A stretch of 59,821 bases of DNA from a virus: the IMG/VR virus record IMGVR_UViG_3300037714_000050, one strand, 5' to 3'. The translations under genes and the position numbers were made by a program. Positions 8,179 through 59,273 of this stretch are shown here, piece after piece. Every line of letters starts with the position of its first letter. Positions within the stretch are counted from its first letter, which is position 1. The notes beneath the pieces were generated by a model. That model was not told the origin of the DNA. It saw only the letters and a program-made list of their open reading frames with translations, and did no database searches.

Positions 8179-8196
8179 CAGAAAACCGGTTTTCTG
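8179..8196. promoter_or_regulatory. Palindromic motif copy 1/13 (CAGAAAACCGGTTTTCTG)
   Basis: Intergenic, 14 nt upstream of the GTG of the 7077-8165 gene on the - strand. Confidence 0.6.
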
Positions 8197-8199
8197 GCA

Positions 8200-11100
8200 T
8201 CAGTCGCGGACCACCAGATCCACGAGCATGAGCGTGTCCGTGTACGCCTCACCAGAGTCAAGCTCCAGGGTCACCAGGTACGGAATCCCGCCCGTCAGTT
8301 CGGGCCACTCGACCGGTCCGCCGTCCGGGCCGTACAGCAGGTGGTTCCCATCCTGGTCAACGAAGCCAGGCTTGCTCACCGTCGCCTCACGGAGCACACC
8401 GTTGATCACGATGGTGGCACCCTCCGCCAGGTAGGACACGATGATCTCGCCGTCGTAGTCGCACGGCCCCAACTGGTCGATGGTGAGGTTGTCCGGGTTC
8501 TCCCAGAAGCGGATGCGCGCCTGTCGGACCGGAGCCGTGCCAGCGATCAGGGTGATGACCGGGTACGCCGTCAGGTTCCGAGGAACCGTGTCAGCAGGCA
8601 CGCTCACCACTGTCCGGTTGTAGGAGCTGGGCTCCGTCACGCACGCGTTGGCCACCTGCGGGGGTGCAGGAGGTGCGGGCGGAGCGGGGCACTCAGGGTC
8701 CTCCGACACGTCCTCGGCCAGGGGCGTGAGCAGAAGCGCCGACTGGTTCGGGTCACCAGACCACTCAGTGTTCGGCGTGGTCTGGTCAAACGGCTCGGTC
8801 GCAACGTCCCCACGCTGGATCATGAGGGCATCGACCTCCATGCCCACGGCTGCCGCAACGTCATCGGGCGGGAAGAAGCCTGACTCGATCCCGGACAGAG
8901 TCACGTTGTCCGGGAGGGTGAACGTCGTCTCTAGCCGGTACCACTGCCCGACCACCGCCACGTTGACCGTGTCACCGCTGGAGAACGACGGGTGGCCAGT
9001 CATGGTGACGAAGCAGTTCATCTCGAAGACGCCCAGCGTGCCTGACGTGGTAGCGCGCACGTACGCGCTGACGGTCAGGGTGTCACCGCCGATGGGGAGA
9101 GGTCCGGAAGTGACCTCCGAGGGGAAGTAGTAGTTGTTGACTACGGCCAAGGAGCCGCCAGCATCTGCCGTAATCCGGTACACCCACTCACCGAGGCGAG
9201 CCGTGGGCGACATGACGCGATCGTTGAACGTCAGGTTCGCGCCACCACCCGCCCAACTCGGGTCAGCGGGAACGACAGCCTCCAGCGACGGGTCGTAGGA
9301 GAAGTTGATGATCTGCGGCAGGCCATCCTCAGAGCACGGCACATCCGGGATGGTCACCGAGGTACCAGTGGGCAGACCGCCAGCGAAGATCGGGTTGCGG
9401 TACTTGAACGGGTTTCCTGCCCGCAGGGAGTAGGTGATCTCCGCCATGACGCCACAGGAGGCACGGCGGAGGTTGGTCAGAATCGGACCCTGCGACGCCT
9501 TCACCTGGTACATCGTGCGCGCCTGGAACCGGCCCGGGTCAGGCTCGGTAGCGTCCGTCTCCAGGATCTCTTCCACCATGTACTGATCGATCTGCCACGA
9601 GACGGAGCCGAAGGAGCCCAGTTCAAGGTTCGCGTTCGGGTGAAGCCCGATCACGGTTGAGGTCTCTGCTGCCGTGAACTCGATGACCCAGAAGTGCGCG
9701 GACCCGTTGTCTACGGTGTACGTTGCGACAGCTCCCGTGCCTGTGCCGACAGAGGCGAACGGGTTGATGTCCTGACCCCCGCTGACATCCGTCTCGGACC
9801 AGGTCGCATCGAACTGGATCATGAGGCGGTAGCGACTGGCTGGAATCATGCCGAAGACGGTGCGCTCAACGCCGTGATCAGGCGTGTACGTCAACGCTGA
9901 CTCGAACGGAGCCTGACCGATGGTCCACACCATGCTGAACTCAACTGCCTCGCCGTAGATCCACTCCACGGACATGGTGTCTGGCGCAAGGTGCGTCCAC
10001 CCATCCGAAGGCGGCACAACGTTATGACCAGAGCCGAACGCCACGACGCCAGGGCGCGGCACGCGCCGGACCAGGGCGCTGTAAATCAGGAGAGCAGTGG
10101 TCGGCACAGAAGGGCTGGTCTGCGTCGGAGTAAGCGACAGGTGCACAGAATCGGTGCGCGGGATGAAGTCGAGAACTGTCGTCTCGGTCGGAGGGTCCTC
10201 GCTCCAGCCTGAGACCGTCTCGTAGTCGATCTCCTGCTCCAGGCTGGAAGACGACGCGTTGGGGGTACCGTCCCACCGGTACCCCTCGAAGTTCCCATCG
10301 AAGTAGGTGCCGACATCCTCGACCTCGACCTCGATGGACCCATCCTGAGCGGTCTGGAGACCGAACACCAAGTAGGCCAGCGGGTTGGCAGTGGGGCGCT
10401 GGCTGTCGAAGTACGACTCATCAGAGGAGCCCACCAGGACGATGCCGCCCGTGGCGTCGTAGATGTCACCCACCTGTACCGCAGCACCGCCACCTGCCCC
10501 ACCAACCTCCAGGATGACGCGCATCTCCTCGACGCCCACCAGATCGCTCTGTGCGTTCTGGCCTCCGGCCACGTAGAGCCAGGTGTCAGCGTCCAGCGAG
10601 AACGGCTCAACAACCTCCTCCAGAAGAACCTCACCAGCCGCGAACACCTGGTGGCGTGCGGTACCAGTGACAGCACGGTTCGACCGGAAGAAGGCACCAG
10701 TGACCCACGGAGTGCCCGTGAGGAGGGGGTCGGGGTAGTCCGAGATGCCCATGAAGGACGAGACGATGCTCGTGAACGGCCCTGCGGTCCCAGAGGTCGG
10801 AGCGGTAGTGACCTCGTTGCGGTTGTATGTGGGCGACTGGACCGACCCGTACAGCACTGGTCCATCGACAGCACCAGCGACCGCAGACGGAGTGACCACC
10901 CCGTCTGCGCCCAGCGCAAAGTCCCACACGTTGGTCTGCTCGGCGCGGGAGTCCGTGTGCAGGTTGGTGCGCAGGATGTCGTAGCCCGGGGACTCGACCA
11001 GGAGGTTGGCGGCGCCGAACTCCATGTTCGGCTGGATCGCTCCAACCCCTACGGTCCAGGCGGCGAAGATCTCCATCGACACCGCGCTTTCTGGCGCGAC

Positions 11101-12249
11101 GACGATGCCCTCCAGGCGCTGCCAGGTGTTGTTCATGCCAACACCAGACCGGAGAATGACCTCGGTGCCGATCTGACCGCCGCCGCTGTTGAAGAATCTG
11201 GAGGACAGACGGGCCGTGCCAACCGGAGCACGCAGATAGATCGACCCCTGGTACAGGTTGCCAGCAGTGACGGGGATGGAGTCGTTCACCCCAACAGCGC
11301 CAAGAGCGGAGATGCCGTACGGCGAGGACGTGTTCGAGGACGTGGTGATGGACTGCCGGTACCCGAGGCCAAGCGGACCACCCGTGGGAATGTCAGCCTC
11401 GGAGTCGGTCACCCCCCCACCCGCGAACTCCCACCCGAGCAGGCGAGGGTTCGGCGCGAGGTTCGTCCGGGACTCGGCGCAAGAGTCGGCAATGCGGACG
11501 TAGAAGTCACCGAAGTTCTCGATCCGCATCCGAAGCTGGTACTGCTCACCGGGGATGAGGCCCGTGATCTCGCGACAGGCAAGCTTCTGCGGATCGCCAG
11601 GGTTCCAGTCGAAGCGAAGCCCGGGGTCGGGCAGGCTGCCGCCTCCAGGCCATGCGGTGATGGTCCCGGACGAAGTGGTCCACGCGTCCAGTTCCGCCTG
11701 CGTTACAGGCACCTCCAGCGTGTACGGCTCAGCGAAGTCGGGCGGAAGCACCTGCACTGGGGGACACGAGGAGAAGACGTTCAGGCGGTCACCGAAGCAC
11801 CGCCCCTCCTCCGTTCCGTTCAGCGCGCTGTCTAGCCAGGACATGCCCGCGTACAGCGCCGCCTCATCCTTGGCGAAGGCGACGCCGTTGACCCGGATGT
11901 CCTTGCCGGTGAAGCGCGAGCCCACGACCACGGAGCCGTCGCCGGTCAGTTCGGCAGACTCGATGCTCCGCGTGGAGTCATCGATGCCTGCAAAGCCCAG
12001 CGGGTAGACACCATAGAAGTCGCCGGTCACCGGGTCGGTCGGGTCGTACCAGGGCGCGTTGTCGCCCTCAGGTGTCGTGTAGCCATCAGGGGAACCCACG
12101 GCAGCCTCTAGGCCGTCGCAGTCCTCGCACCCCCGCAGACCCATGCTGGGTGCGAGGTTGTCTGTGTACGCCTTCACGCGGGCAGCGTTGACCAGTTCGA
12201 TGGTCTCGCCGTCGCCGTTCGCCAGCGCCATGTACCCGGGGTACGTCAC
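8200..12249 (-). CDS. Large minor tail protein (1349 aa; tip or receptor-binding, carbohydrate-binding-like repeats)
   Basis: Position immediately after the tape measure gene, plus its size. GTG start after AGGAGA. Confidence 0.65.
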   Translation of the reverse strand: MTYPGYMALANGDGETIELVNAARVKAYTDNLAPSMGLRGCEDCDGLEAAVGSPDGYTTPEGDNAPWYDPTDPVTGDFYGVYPLGFAGIDDSTRSIESAELTGDGSVVVGSRFTGKDIRVNGVAFAKDEAALYAGMSWLDSALNGTEEGRCFGDRLNVFSSCPPVQVLPPDFAEPYTLEVPVTQAELDAWTTSSGTITAWPGGGSLPDPGLRFDWNPGDPQKLACREITGLIPGEQYQLRMRIENFGDFYVRIADSCAESRTNLAPNPRLLGWEFAGGGVTDSEADIPTGGPLGLGYRQSITTSSNTSSPYGISALGAVGVNDSIPVTAGNLYQGSIYLRAPVGTARLSSRFFNSGGGQIGTEVILRSGVGMNNTWQRLEGIVVAPESAVSMEIFAAWTVGVGAIQPNMEFGAANLLVESPGYDILRTNLHTDSRAEQTNVWDFALGADGVVTPSAVAGAVDGPVLYGSVQSPTYNRNEVTTAPTSGTAGPFTSIVSSFMGISDYPDPLLTGTPWVTGAFFRSNRAVTGTARHQVFAAGEVLLEEVVEPFSLDADTWLYVAGGQNAQSDLVGVEEMRVILEVGGAGGGAAVQVGDIYDATGGIVLVGSSDESYFDSQRPTANPLAYLVFGLQTAQDGSIEVEVEDVGTYFDGNFEGYRWDGTPNASSSSLEQEIDYETVSGWSEDPPTETTVLDFIPRTDSVHLSLTPTQTSPSVPTTALLIYSALVRRVPRPGVVAFGSGHNVVPPSDGWTHLAPDTMSVEWIYGEAVEFSMVWTIGQAPFESALTYTPDHGVERTVFGMIPASRYRLMIQFDATWSETDVSGGQDINPFASVGTGTGAVATYTVDNGSAHFWVIEFTAAETSTVIGLHPNANLELGSFGSVSWQIDQYMVEEILETDATEPDPGRFQARTMYQVKASQGPILTNLRRASCGVMAEITYSLRAGNPFKYRNPIFAGGLPTGTSVTIPDVPCSEDGLPQIINFSYDPSLEAVVPADPSWAGGGANLTFNDRVMSPTARLGEWVYRITADAGGSLAVVNNYYFPSEVTSGPLPIGGDTLTVSAYVRATTSGTLGVFEMNCFVTMTGHPSFSSGDTVNVAVVGQWYRLETTFTLPDNVTLSGIESGFFPPDDVAAAVGMEVDALMIQRGDVATEPFDQTTPNTEWSGDPNQSALLLTPLAEDVSEDPECPAPPAPPAPPQVANACVTEPSSYNRTVVSVPADTVPRNLTAYPVITLIAGTAPVRQARIRFWENPDNLTIDQLGPCDYDGEIIVSYLAEGATIVINGVLREATVSKPGFVDQDGNHLLYGPDGGPVEWPELTGGIPYLVTLELDSGEAYTDTLMLVDLVVRD

Positions 12250-12257
12250 GTGATCTC

Positions 12258-59106: not shown

Positions 59107-59119
59107 GTATAACTTCATA

Positions 59120-59251
59120 GCGTCGGGTCGAAGAGATTCGCTTACCCAGACCTCTTATCTGGGTCCCATCGGCTGGCGGGCTAAACCCCGTCCGGTGAAA
59201 TGACACCCTTGGCCGTGGAACCGTCAGCGAGCCTCGCCCCATATCCGACGC
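59120..59251 (+). ncRNA. Y RNA-like module 5: large non-tRNA apical domain with anticodon-arm-like hairpin
   Basis: H1 GCGUC/GACGC and H2 GAGAUUCGCU/AGCGAGCCUC. Hairpin CCCAGA-CCUCUUA-UCUGGG. The 3' conserved block is AUAUCC. Confidence 0.6.
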
Positions 59252-59255
59252 ACCC

Positions 59256-59273
59256 CAGAAAACATGTTTTCTG
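59256..59273. promoter_or_regulatory. Palindromic motif copy 13/13 (CAGAAAACATGTTTTCTG) inside the RNA array
   Basis: Replaces the usual ACAACUGAA linker between modules 5 and 6. Its last base (59273) is the first base of the module 6 closing helix (GAGAC). Confidence 0.6.

Follow-up and report, generated by a model that had tools for sequence, protein, structure and literature searches.

The 59,821-bp window analyzed here (IMG/VR record IMGVR_UViG_3300037714_000050), which belongs to an uncultivated actinobacterial phage, carries 13 exact copies of the palindrome GAAAACNNGTTTTC, with arms GAAAAC and GTTTTC on either side of a central dinucleotide. The best reading of these copies, which we hold with about even confidence, is that they would be double-stranded DNA (dsDNA) sites read through their GAAAAC arms by a symmetric dimer that the phage itself encodes. 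An earlier note on this DNA had proposed an operator for a dimeric phage regulator. A dimeric reader agrees with the invariant arms, the symmetric flanks and the lineage-specific palindromes described below, whereas the idea of an operator acting at promoters is contradicted by the lack of sigma-70-like promoters beside the copies and by the hammerhead ribozymes that adjoin some of them.

All 13 copies lie where the earlier note had placed them (it counted from two nucleotides before the core), with 14-bp cores starting at positions 8181, 24908, 32110, 32320, 33312, 34071, 35051, 37655, 38583, 40813, 43363, 53011 and 59258. In 100 dinucleotide-preserving shuffles the expected number was 0.00, which shows the motif to be enriched. 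The core is also as invariant as had been claimed: the arms are exact in 13 of 13 copies, around a centre that is AT in eight, CG in four and CA in one. No more copies were gained in the window when as many as two mismatches were tolerated; the motif family is all-or-none. No other palindrome of the form 6+N+6 is as frequent in the window, and isolated half-sites are rare, with only 4 of the 30 GAAAAC/GTTTTC hexamers lying outside the motif. The flanks are symmetric as well, being mostly CA...TG, TA or CA, which brings the dyad to 16–18 bp, and flanks of the form YR..YR (Y, pyrimidine; R, purine) are kept in 12–13 of the 13 copies. Each copy is an AT-rich island in a GC-rich genome. The 14-base palindrome is highly non-random and under very strong selection.

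Relatives with the same motif at orthologous sites were recovered from other metagenomes and sequencing runs (contigs L008/L009, L082, L099, L075/L098, L256, L258, L259, L260, L262 and L263). When IMG/VR was scanned for exact matches to a 22-mer or a 17-mer form of the motif, the outcome was nothing or chance single matches, except for the relative 3300037522_000016. Over 20 orthologous pairs, each consisting of a window copy and its counterpart in a relative, the 12 arm bases are identical at 240 of 240 positions (100%) and the 15-nt flanks at 433 of 600 (72%). The central dinucleotide, at 15 of 40 positions (37%), falls below these neutral-looking flanks. For example, orthologues of the copy at 43363 have the centres CG, AC and CA. 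A requirement that the centre be self-complementary (AT or CG) was dropped on account of the AC and CA centres in relatives. The choice of centre is moreover biased by genome: the window and L262 tend to have AT or AC, and L008, L082 and L263 tend to have CG or CA, possibly through conversion among copies or a shift in the preference of the binder.

Copies are also gained or lost whole. The motif follows the orthologue of the hammerhead ribozyme at 33578 in L008, L082 and L262 and is absent from that place in the window, which makes it a presence/absence polymorphism; the copy at 38583 is missing from L259, where 18 unrelated nucleotides stand instead; and the gene at 33337–33576 is present together with one hammerhead/motif cassette in the window and L082 and absent from L008 and L262. 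By these comparisons the arms are shown to be under purifying selection, the centre to be free, and the copies to turn over as discrete units.

Turnover of this kind bears on a rival explanation, in which the motif, often with a hammerhead and a Shine-Dalgarno (SD) sequence, is a boundary cassette that is kept by recombination or mobility and has little regulatory role, much like the PeSL cassettes of T4 or REP-like elements, and that mediates gene gain and loss between phages. The breakpoints of the presence/absence of gene 33337–33576 do lie in repeated cassettes, a discrete motif unit of about 20 nt is present or absent at 33640 and at 38583, and a centre that is less conserved than the flanks and biased by genome suggests conversion among copies. 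Indels between repeats have likewise been described in cluster O phages (PMC4351075). However, recombination needs neither a perfect palindrome nor the conservation of 240 of 240 arm bases, no transposase or RAYT-like gene was found, and one copy inside a gene is kept against codon bias, which argues for a sequence-specific function. We therefore regard a cassette without a regulatory role as improbable.

More distant relatives, at about 50–70% terminase identity, have different palindromes in the same start-proximal position. In L041 the palindrome is GAAAGT-N3-ACTTTC, with 15 copies in 21 kb. The same arms occur 13 times in 9 kb of L032, separated by N3 in four copies and by N4 in nine. TTGAAGC-GT-GCTTCAA is found twice in L015 and once in L016, and a palindrome of the GTAGGTATACCTAC type once each in L019 and L022. 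In the cluster EG phage OneinaGillian we re-found 10 copies of GATCAACC-NN-GGTTGATC in the same arrangement, and the Arthrobacter phage BruhMoment (L066, OM818331.1 25000–67318) has 28 copies of the GC-rich GGGGTCG-N4-6-CGACCCC. That relatives swap the palindrome and keep the arrangement implies a co-evolving, trans-acting specificity factor. With regard to BruhMoment itself, most of its palindromes stand right after stop codons and 10–25 nt before the next start, with a few in structural genes, and no description of them was found in the literature searched.

The differing palindromes of related phages fit specificity encoded by the phage better than they fit a site that belongs to a regulator or nucleoid protein of the host and is put to use by the phage, such as a Zur/Fur-like or TetR-like box or an Lsr2 nucleation site. 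An AT-rich motif in a GC-rich genome is what might be expected of a host factor of this kind. When the 18-mer was sought in 185,579 species genomes, however, the matches listed were scattered singles, mostly in low-GC taxa, with no actinobacterial cluster among them, and we consider a host factor very improbable. In shape the motif may resemble actinobacterial transcription-factor boxes such as those of Zur and KstR; parS, LexA and Zur boxes probably differ from it in arm orientation or spacing. Five contigs of an unrelated metagenome-assembled genome, Bacteriovoracaceae SMAG_U10334 (L144, L153, L174, L197 and L203), each carry the 18-mer CAGAAAACNNGTTTTCTG, possibly as an independent dispersed repeat.

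The positions of the copies are best followed on the gene map, which was built from gene calling based on GC content at third codon positions (GC3) combined with Pfam, PHROG and tblastn. The genome, about 87% coding and 62–68% GC throughout, has two divergent arms. A leftward arm (32008 to 5374) contains the terminase (27119–28681), portal (25032–26810), tail and endolysin genes. The rightward arm, from 32429, contains small early genes followed by genes for a PNKP phosphatase, SSB, a DnaB-like helicase, ERF and glycosyltransferases, and runs across the contig end into a Ro60-like gene (79–1887), three tRNAs and HNH genes. Ten of the 13 copies lie in the rightward non-structural arm or in the control region between the arms, and 12 of 13 are intergenic. 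As the earlier note had observed, eight copies stand just before start codons; they end 11–23 nt upstream of the start, with the SD between. Where the gap between genes is long (79–134 nt), it has a constant order: stop codon, very strong GC-rich hairpin, small hairpin or ribozyme, motif, SD and start.

Seven of the eight start-associated copies belong to the rightward arm. Those at 33312–33325 and 35051–35064, both with AT centres, begin 0 nt after hammerheads and are followed by TA and GGAGG and then by ATG codons at 33337 and 35076, respectively. Copy 34071–34084 (CG) lies 8 nt after a GC hairpin with 30-bp arms (33996–34062) and 23 nt before the ATG of a gene for a conserved 36-amino-acid membrane peptide (34108–34218). 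Copy 37655–37668 (AT) comes after two hairpins and is followed by TA-GGGAGG and the ATG at 37681 of an 81-amino-acid gene (GC3 0.90), and copy 38583–38596 (CA) fills the 36-nt gap between the PNKP-phosphatase gene (stop at 38576) and gene 38613–38864. Copy 40813–40826 (CG) stands at the 3′ end of a 90-nt gap that opens with GC hairpins, and the ATG at 40842 comes 15 nt after it; copy 43363–43376 (AT) likewise occupies the 3′ end of the 132-nt gap that follows the SSB gene, with the ATG at 43389 coming 12 nt after it. The eighth, copy 8181–8194 (CG), serves the minus strand in the same arrangement, as had been noted: on that strand the stop of gene 8200–12249 precedes it by 5 nt, the SD GAGAGGGG comes directly after it, and the GTG of the minor-tail-like gene 7077–8165 follows 15 nt on.

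The remaining five copies are 95–190 nt or more from any start codon, or have none. Two bracket the divergent control region, in agreement with the earlier note: copy 32110–32123 (AT) is 101 nt upstream of the first leftward gene, which starts at 32008, and sits within a larger inverted repeat, GCCAGATCCA...TGGATCTGGC, and copy 32320–32333 (AT) is 95 nt upstream of the first rightward gene (32429). Two others had been placed inside coding sequence. This is correct for one of them, whereas copy 53011–53024 (CG) is in a gap of 288 nt, with the RHH_5 gene 52740–52928 ending 83 nt before it and the SLOG-family gene 53217–53621 beginning 192 nt downstream. The true in-gene copy, 24908–24921 (AT), encodes the peptide SENMFS at codons 38–43 of an 834-amino-acid gene (22531–25035, minus strand) that comes after the portal gene. 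This copy is written in rare codons that end in A or T (GAA, TTT and TCT), has no start codon nearby, and is kept in L008 and L262 and hence in three lineages with the window; the N-terminus around it is conserved as protein in more than 20 relatives. The last copy, 59258–59271 (AT), is in the RNA array to which it had been assigned, among Y-RNA-like modules that would stand upstream of the Ro60-like gene 79–1887 if the contig is circular.

A second element is coupled to some of the copies. The Rfam model RF02276 matches type II hammerhead ribozymes at three places on the plus strand of the window: at 33252–33314 (36 bits, against a gathering threshold, GA, of 37), where the 3′ pseudoknot strand GCUGUCA abuts copy 33312; at 34988–35053 (34 bits), which abuts copy 35051; and at 33578–33639 (40.8 bits, above GA), which is followed by TCTTCTAGC and an SD and not by the motif. 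Relatives have further hammerheads, including orthologues in L008, L082 and L262, where scores for the same model are 39–41.5 bits. The CUGANGA and GAAA cores, the GUC cleavage site, the three stems and the open stem II are all present. Over six distinct sequences 99.2% of the cells in the fold are paired, with compensatory change at 7 pairs, compared with 33–56% in controls with slid partners, and the pseudoknot between loop I and the 3′ tail is invariant. The three window hammerheads flank single small early genes, and each comes after a very strong GC hairpin just past the upstream stop codon. No other ribozyme class was detected beside the remaining copies at E values up to 10.

Two of the window hammerheads end in ...GCUGUCA with GAAAAC directly next, and the order of hammerhead, 0–4 nt, motif and SD is repeated in L008, L082 (twice), L099 and L262 (twice). 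Hammerhead-adjacent copies lie about 38 nt from the 5′-hydroxyl end that cleavage creates. Since copies 33312 and 35051 abut hammerheads, they are transcribed in read-through polycistronic RNA. The architecture matches that of published type II hammerheads, several of which likewise flank single genes of phage or prophage operons (Perreault et al. 2011, PMC3088659). The text of that report differs from what is seen here in that it describes no conserved palindrome 0–4 nt after the ribozyme and before the SD.

Transcripts that pass through the motif also bear on the possibility that it is a promoter element, resembling a middle promoter, at which the RNA polymerase of the host aided by a phage factor, or else an unrecognized phage polymerase, would start transcripts at the SD. 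Like many phage-specific promoters, the motif is highly conserved and stands 10–25 nt ahead of the starts of a subset of genes; it is, moreover, an AT-rich island in 64% GC DNA, and most copies are preceded by GC-rich hairpins that are possible terminators. Nevertheless, hammerheads immediately upstream need read-through transcripts, a perfect palindrome has no direction, the in-gene copy and those away from starts do not fit, and the 2 nt between motif and SD would make an extremely short leader. Pfam scans of about 80 genes found no sigma factor or RNA polymerase gene. A promoter role for the motif is accordingly, in our estimate, quite improbable. A reading of the motif as a –10 or –35 element or as a promoter of leaderless mRNAs was rejected, as it offers no match to TANNNT at the distance that such an element needs. 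The TTGACA and TCGACA sequences upstream of copies 33312 and 35051 were rejected as –35 boxes, because Rfam and covariation show them to be the stem I loops of hammerheads.

Another rival explanation moves recognition from DNA to RNA. The motif in the 5′ untranslated region would then be a weak A-U hairpin or an AU-rich platform 2–12 nt before the SD, and would control translation gene by gene, either through a phage RNA-binding protein or by tuning how ribosomes gain access or what becomes of the 5′ end once the ribozyme has cleaved. The logic would be like that of T4 RegA or coat-protein operators, and the succession of hammerhead, hairpin and SD resembles the synthetic RiboJ insulator. A site at or next to the ribosome-binding site in mRNA is indeed present for 8 of the 13 copies, and the copies that directly follow hammerheads, two here and five more in relatives, are certainly in the 5′ regions of ribozyme-processed mRNAs. 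Folding gives no support for a stable hairpin: z-scores for the copies with their flanks range from –1.5 to +1.4, most of them close to 0, and 4 of 8 minimum-free-energy folds of whole gaps lack the motif hairpin. The stem is invariant without compensatory variation and the centre that would form the loop varies, which is the reverse of typical hairpin recognition. Moreover, C6 and G9 could not pair in a hairpin with a 2-nt centre and yet are invariant, which suggests that base identity is read symmetrically, as in B-DNA. The five copies at 32110, 32320, 53011, 59258 and 24908, far from any start or without one, also speak against an RNA operator. The earlier note had judged an RNA hairpin the less likely possibility, and the z-scores agree with it; a role at the RNA level is, however, still a live alternative, although an unlikely one.

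If, instead, the reader is a dimer on dsDNA, as we prefer, a phage-encoded protein with two-fold symmetry would contact both GAAAAC arms and leave the central 2 bp unread. Its sites would be deployed in three ways. Two sites in phase, with about 209 bp from one to the other, stand on either side of the divergent region, where they could allow looping. Single sites at the 3′ ends of gaps, directly 5′ of the SD, would serve a subset of early genes from inside polycistronic units, in two cases directly after hammerheads. Two further sites are in the late arm. The likeliest effect would be a block or modulation of RNA polymerase at gene boundaries that depends on occupancy of the site. This would be a logic like that of stoperators, except that the sites are symmetric and the phage apparently lytic, and it would set the time at which a subset of early genes is shut off.

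Several observations weigh against a dimer on dsDNA. Hammerhead-adjacent copies, being inside transcripts, cannot be promoter operators, and a consensus scan for promoters and terminators returned nothing associated with the copies, including no sigma-70-like promoter adjoining any of them. Five copies are tied to the SD by the fixed spacing GTTTTC-YA-GGAGG. The motif stands at the SD-proximal end even of gaps of 79–134 nt, so its closeness to the SD does not come from a lack of room, and a place at the extreme 3′ end of gaps fits action on translation initiation more naturally. Control gene by gene, as an RNA operator would exert it, is also the sole explanation for one site per gene within an operon. 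The two spacings between the same arms in L032 are awkward for a rigid dimer and easy for a hairpin, in which they would be a variable loop length. Lysogeny that would need to be maintained appears to be absent, since Pfam and PHROG scans of about 80 genes found no integrase and no cI or immunity repressor, although a divergent repressor could escape such scans. The binder was not identified either: the only names that Pfam and PHROG offer are HTH_17, RHH_5, HTH_36 and a protein with an antirepressor N-terminal domain.

The HTH_36 protein is encoded beside the helicase gene and is probably a replication protein. Two others are candidate binders, namely the 68-amino-acid HTH_17/MerR-like product of 42586–42792 (plus strand), whose homologues occur only in a narrow lineage with the same motif, and the 62-amino-acid RHH_5/Arc-like product of 52740–52928 (plus strand), which is encoded next to copy 53011. 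Homologues of HTH_17 and RHH_5 are confined to the lineage with this motif and so offer no co-variation with the palindrome by which a binder might be recognized, which is a further point against the dimer on DNA.

Hammerhead, palindrome and SD together could form an undescribed three-part intercistronic cassette that insulates and individually controls single early genes after transcription. In it the palindrome would be an RNA or DNA operator for a phage factor that decides whether each mRNA released by the ribozyme is used, and the whole cassette would also move between phages and recombine in one piece, so that genes are gained and lost. We consider this distinctly unlikely. If it were true, cassette logic with lineage-specific palindromes would explain the repeats at gene starts that have long been puzzling in clusters EG and O and in related actinophages.

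The third protein that the earlier note had suggested as a binder, the RHH-like product of the first leftward gene (31835–32008, minus strand; a sub-threshold RHH_5 match, E 0.022), is unlikely to be one. Its gene is preceded by three GGGTGTACCC repeats (32010–32082). In five lineages the first leftward gene is RHH-like but different or strongly diverged, with its own three to five heptamer repeats ahead of it, which are GGGTGTACCC in the window, GTATACA in L008 (module at 9431–9680), GGTGCCA in L082 (2181–2470), GATAGCAC in L262 (8834–9150) and CAGTTTACT in L263 (2722–2960). The GAAAAC sites beside these modules are unchanged across the five lineages. Since the RHH module is swapped and GAAAAC stays, the RHH protein 31835–32008 most likely reads its heptamers and not GAAAAC. 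RHH gene and heptamers look like a hypervariable specificity module of regulator and operator, reminiscent of heteroimmunity, in a phage in which no integrase was found.

Copies 32110 and 32320, which bracket this control region, are 210 bp apart, and the distance is 206–210 bp, or about 20 helical turns, in five lineages. A sigma-A-like early promoter, TTGCCT-N18-CATGAT (32355–32384, plus strand), is conserved in the five lineages and was missed by the consensus scan; as a candidate it would put copy 32320 at about –65. Two other stretches that separate the motif copies are also conserved in five lineages: one of about 90 bp (32172–32262; ...GTGTGGAACTTTTCCGGTGGGGTGTGGGGG...GGAGGATTTCCTG) and the palindrome GGTATACC at 32154–32161, which are possibly a promoter, a small RNA or another operator.

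Among known systems, the inverted repeats that accompany gene starts in phages of clusters EG and O (PMC7302621, PMC4351075) are the closest precedents, and the GAAAAC palindrome shares every descriptive feature by which these repeats are recognized. Within cluster EG, the phages Hyperion, Squash and OneinaGillian have an 18-bp inverted repeat, GATCAACC-NN-GGTTGATC, that lies 14–22 bp upstream of starts, is organized like the 17-bp repeat of cluster O, and is of unknown function (Jacobs-Sera et al. 2020, PMC7302621). These phages are related to the present one (large terminase about 51% identical, same two-arm plan), and their repeat has in common with the GAAAAC palindrome the invariant arms, the free 2-bp centre, about 10 copies per genome, the short gaps upstream of ribosome-binding sites, the mostly non-structural arm, and conservation despite diverging surrounding DNA. 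It differs in its arms, GATCAACC as against the AT-rich GAAAAC; here, unlike in EG, there are also a pair that brackets the divergent region and a conserved in-gene copy. The right arm of OneinaGillian contains no hammerhead that reaches the Rfam threshold.

In cluster O mycobacteriophages the repeat is a 17-bp dyad, TGTTCGG-NNN-CCGAACA, for which the authors proposed a dimeric binder from the symmetry of the site but doubted that it acts in transcription, since the majority of sites lie away from promoters (Cresawn et al. 2015, PMC4351075). Similarities to the palindrome described here are the invariant arms, the variable centre, copies in short gaps or near the 5′ ends of genes and some within genes, enrichment in the non-structural arm, indels between repeats, and few copies near predicted promoters. 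The cluster O repeat differs in having more than 30 copies, a 3-bp centre and about one-third of its copies in genes, and in occurring in unrelated prolate siphoviruses of Mycobacterium. What is new here is the coupling to hammerheads, the signature of selection on the arms alone, and the series of lineage-specific replacements.

The repressor systems to which the earlier note had likened the motif, those of phiC31 and of cluster A mycobacteriophages, are looser analogies, given that an integrase and an immunity repressor were not found and that stoperators are asymmetric. The conserved inverted repeats (CIRs) of phiC31, a temperate actinophage of high GC content, are about 17 bp long, occur several times in its early region together with a conserved early promoter motif, and are bound by the c repressor. 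Here, too, a high-GC actinophage has multiple inverted repeats in its early region, but no such promoter motif stands beside the copies, which have hairpins or hammerheads upstream instead. The stoperators of cluster A and CA phages are asymmetric sites of 13–14 bp, oriented with transcription, that are bound by a monomeric immunity repressor and stop elongation (PMC9283540, PMC6550527, PMC13313380). Like the GAAAAC copies, they are short sites of lineage-specific sequence dispersed in gaps and at gene ends within transcription units; the sites here are, however, symmetric, and the integrase and repressor of the temperate stoperator phages were not found in our scans. A last comparison is to the start-associated sequences (SAS) and extended SAS (ESAS) of cluster K mycobacteriophages and cluster EF Microbacterium phages, of which SAS is an asymmetric 13-mer that is itself the ribosome-binding site (PMC3203893, PMC7302621). 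These are likewise over-conserved motifs of unexplained function at the translation starts of a subset of genes, whereas the palindrome here stands upstream of an ordinary SD.

Since 2015, inverted repeats of this start-associated kind have come to light in several clusters of actinobacteriophages, without a functional test. To these the window adds quantitative evidence that purifying selection is extreme and confined to the arms, and that each phage lineage has its own version. The presence of some copies in ribozyme-processed polycistronic mRNAs, and not at promoters, narrows the possible mechanisms. If the binder is found, the lineage-specific palindromes would offer a compact set of orthogonal operator–regulator pairs for high-GC hosts, and might reveal a mode of control at gene boundaries in lytic phages.

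With regard to the phage as a whole, its contig is JGI 3300037518 Ga0395802_0000260. A nucleotide search of INPHARED gave no close relative, the SSB gene alone being matched (75%). By large terminase the nearest cultured phages are the Arthrobacter phages BruhMoment, Rizwana, Tank and Wilde (the last two of cluster AP), at 49–54% identity, and the Microbacterium phages of cluster EG, with 50.7% identity to OneinaGillian.

Some neighboring genes deserve mention. The PNKP phosphatase gene, of the HAD type (37920–38576, plus strand), shares the early operon with the hammerheads. Enzymes of the PNKP type heal the 2′,3′-cyclic phosphate ends left by ribozyme or anticodon-nuclease cleavage, and a functional link between this gene and the hammerheads is a speculative possibility. 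After the gene served by copy 35051 comes 35483–35968 (plus strand), whose 161-amino-acid product has a Cys-rich tail and a PHROG match annotated as "ParB C-terminal domain" (E 2e-30); an HTH is missing from it, and neither Pfam nor PDB has a relative. For the first early protein (32429–33202) the AlphaFold model is poor (pLDDT 67) and Foldseek gave no match. Near the contig start, 3015–3521 (plus strand) encodes an Acb2/Tad1 hairpin-domain protein, a candidate nucleotide sponge against CBASS or Thoeris, and adjoins the gene for the protein with the P22 antirepressor N-terminal domain (2221–3015, plus strand).

The RNA array that contains copy 59258 extends over 58640–59821, and on to the Ro60-like gene 79–1887 if the contig is circular. 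It consists of about nine tandem modules of the form ...ACAACTTCA/ACAACTGAA...GGGTCGAAG...CGGTTA..., some of which carry tRNA-like T-arms (GGTTCGAATCC). One module (58988–59088) has a weak match to the Y-RNA-like YrlA, at 30 bits, where the gathering score is 69. The array, immediately ahead of a Ro60/TROVE gene, looks like part of a phage Ro/Y-RNA system with an unusually large set of RNAs.

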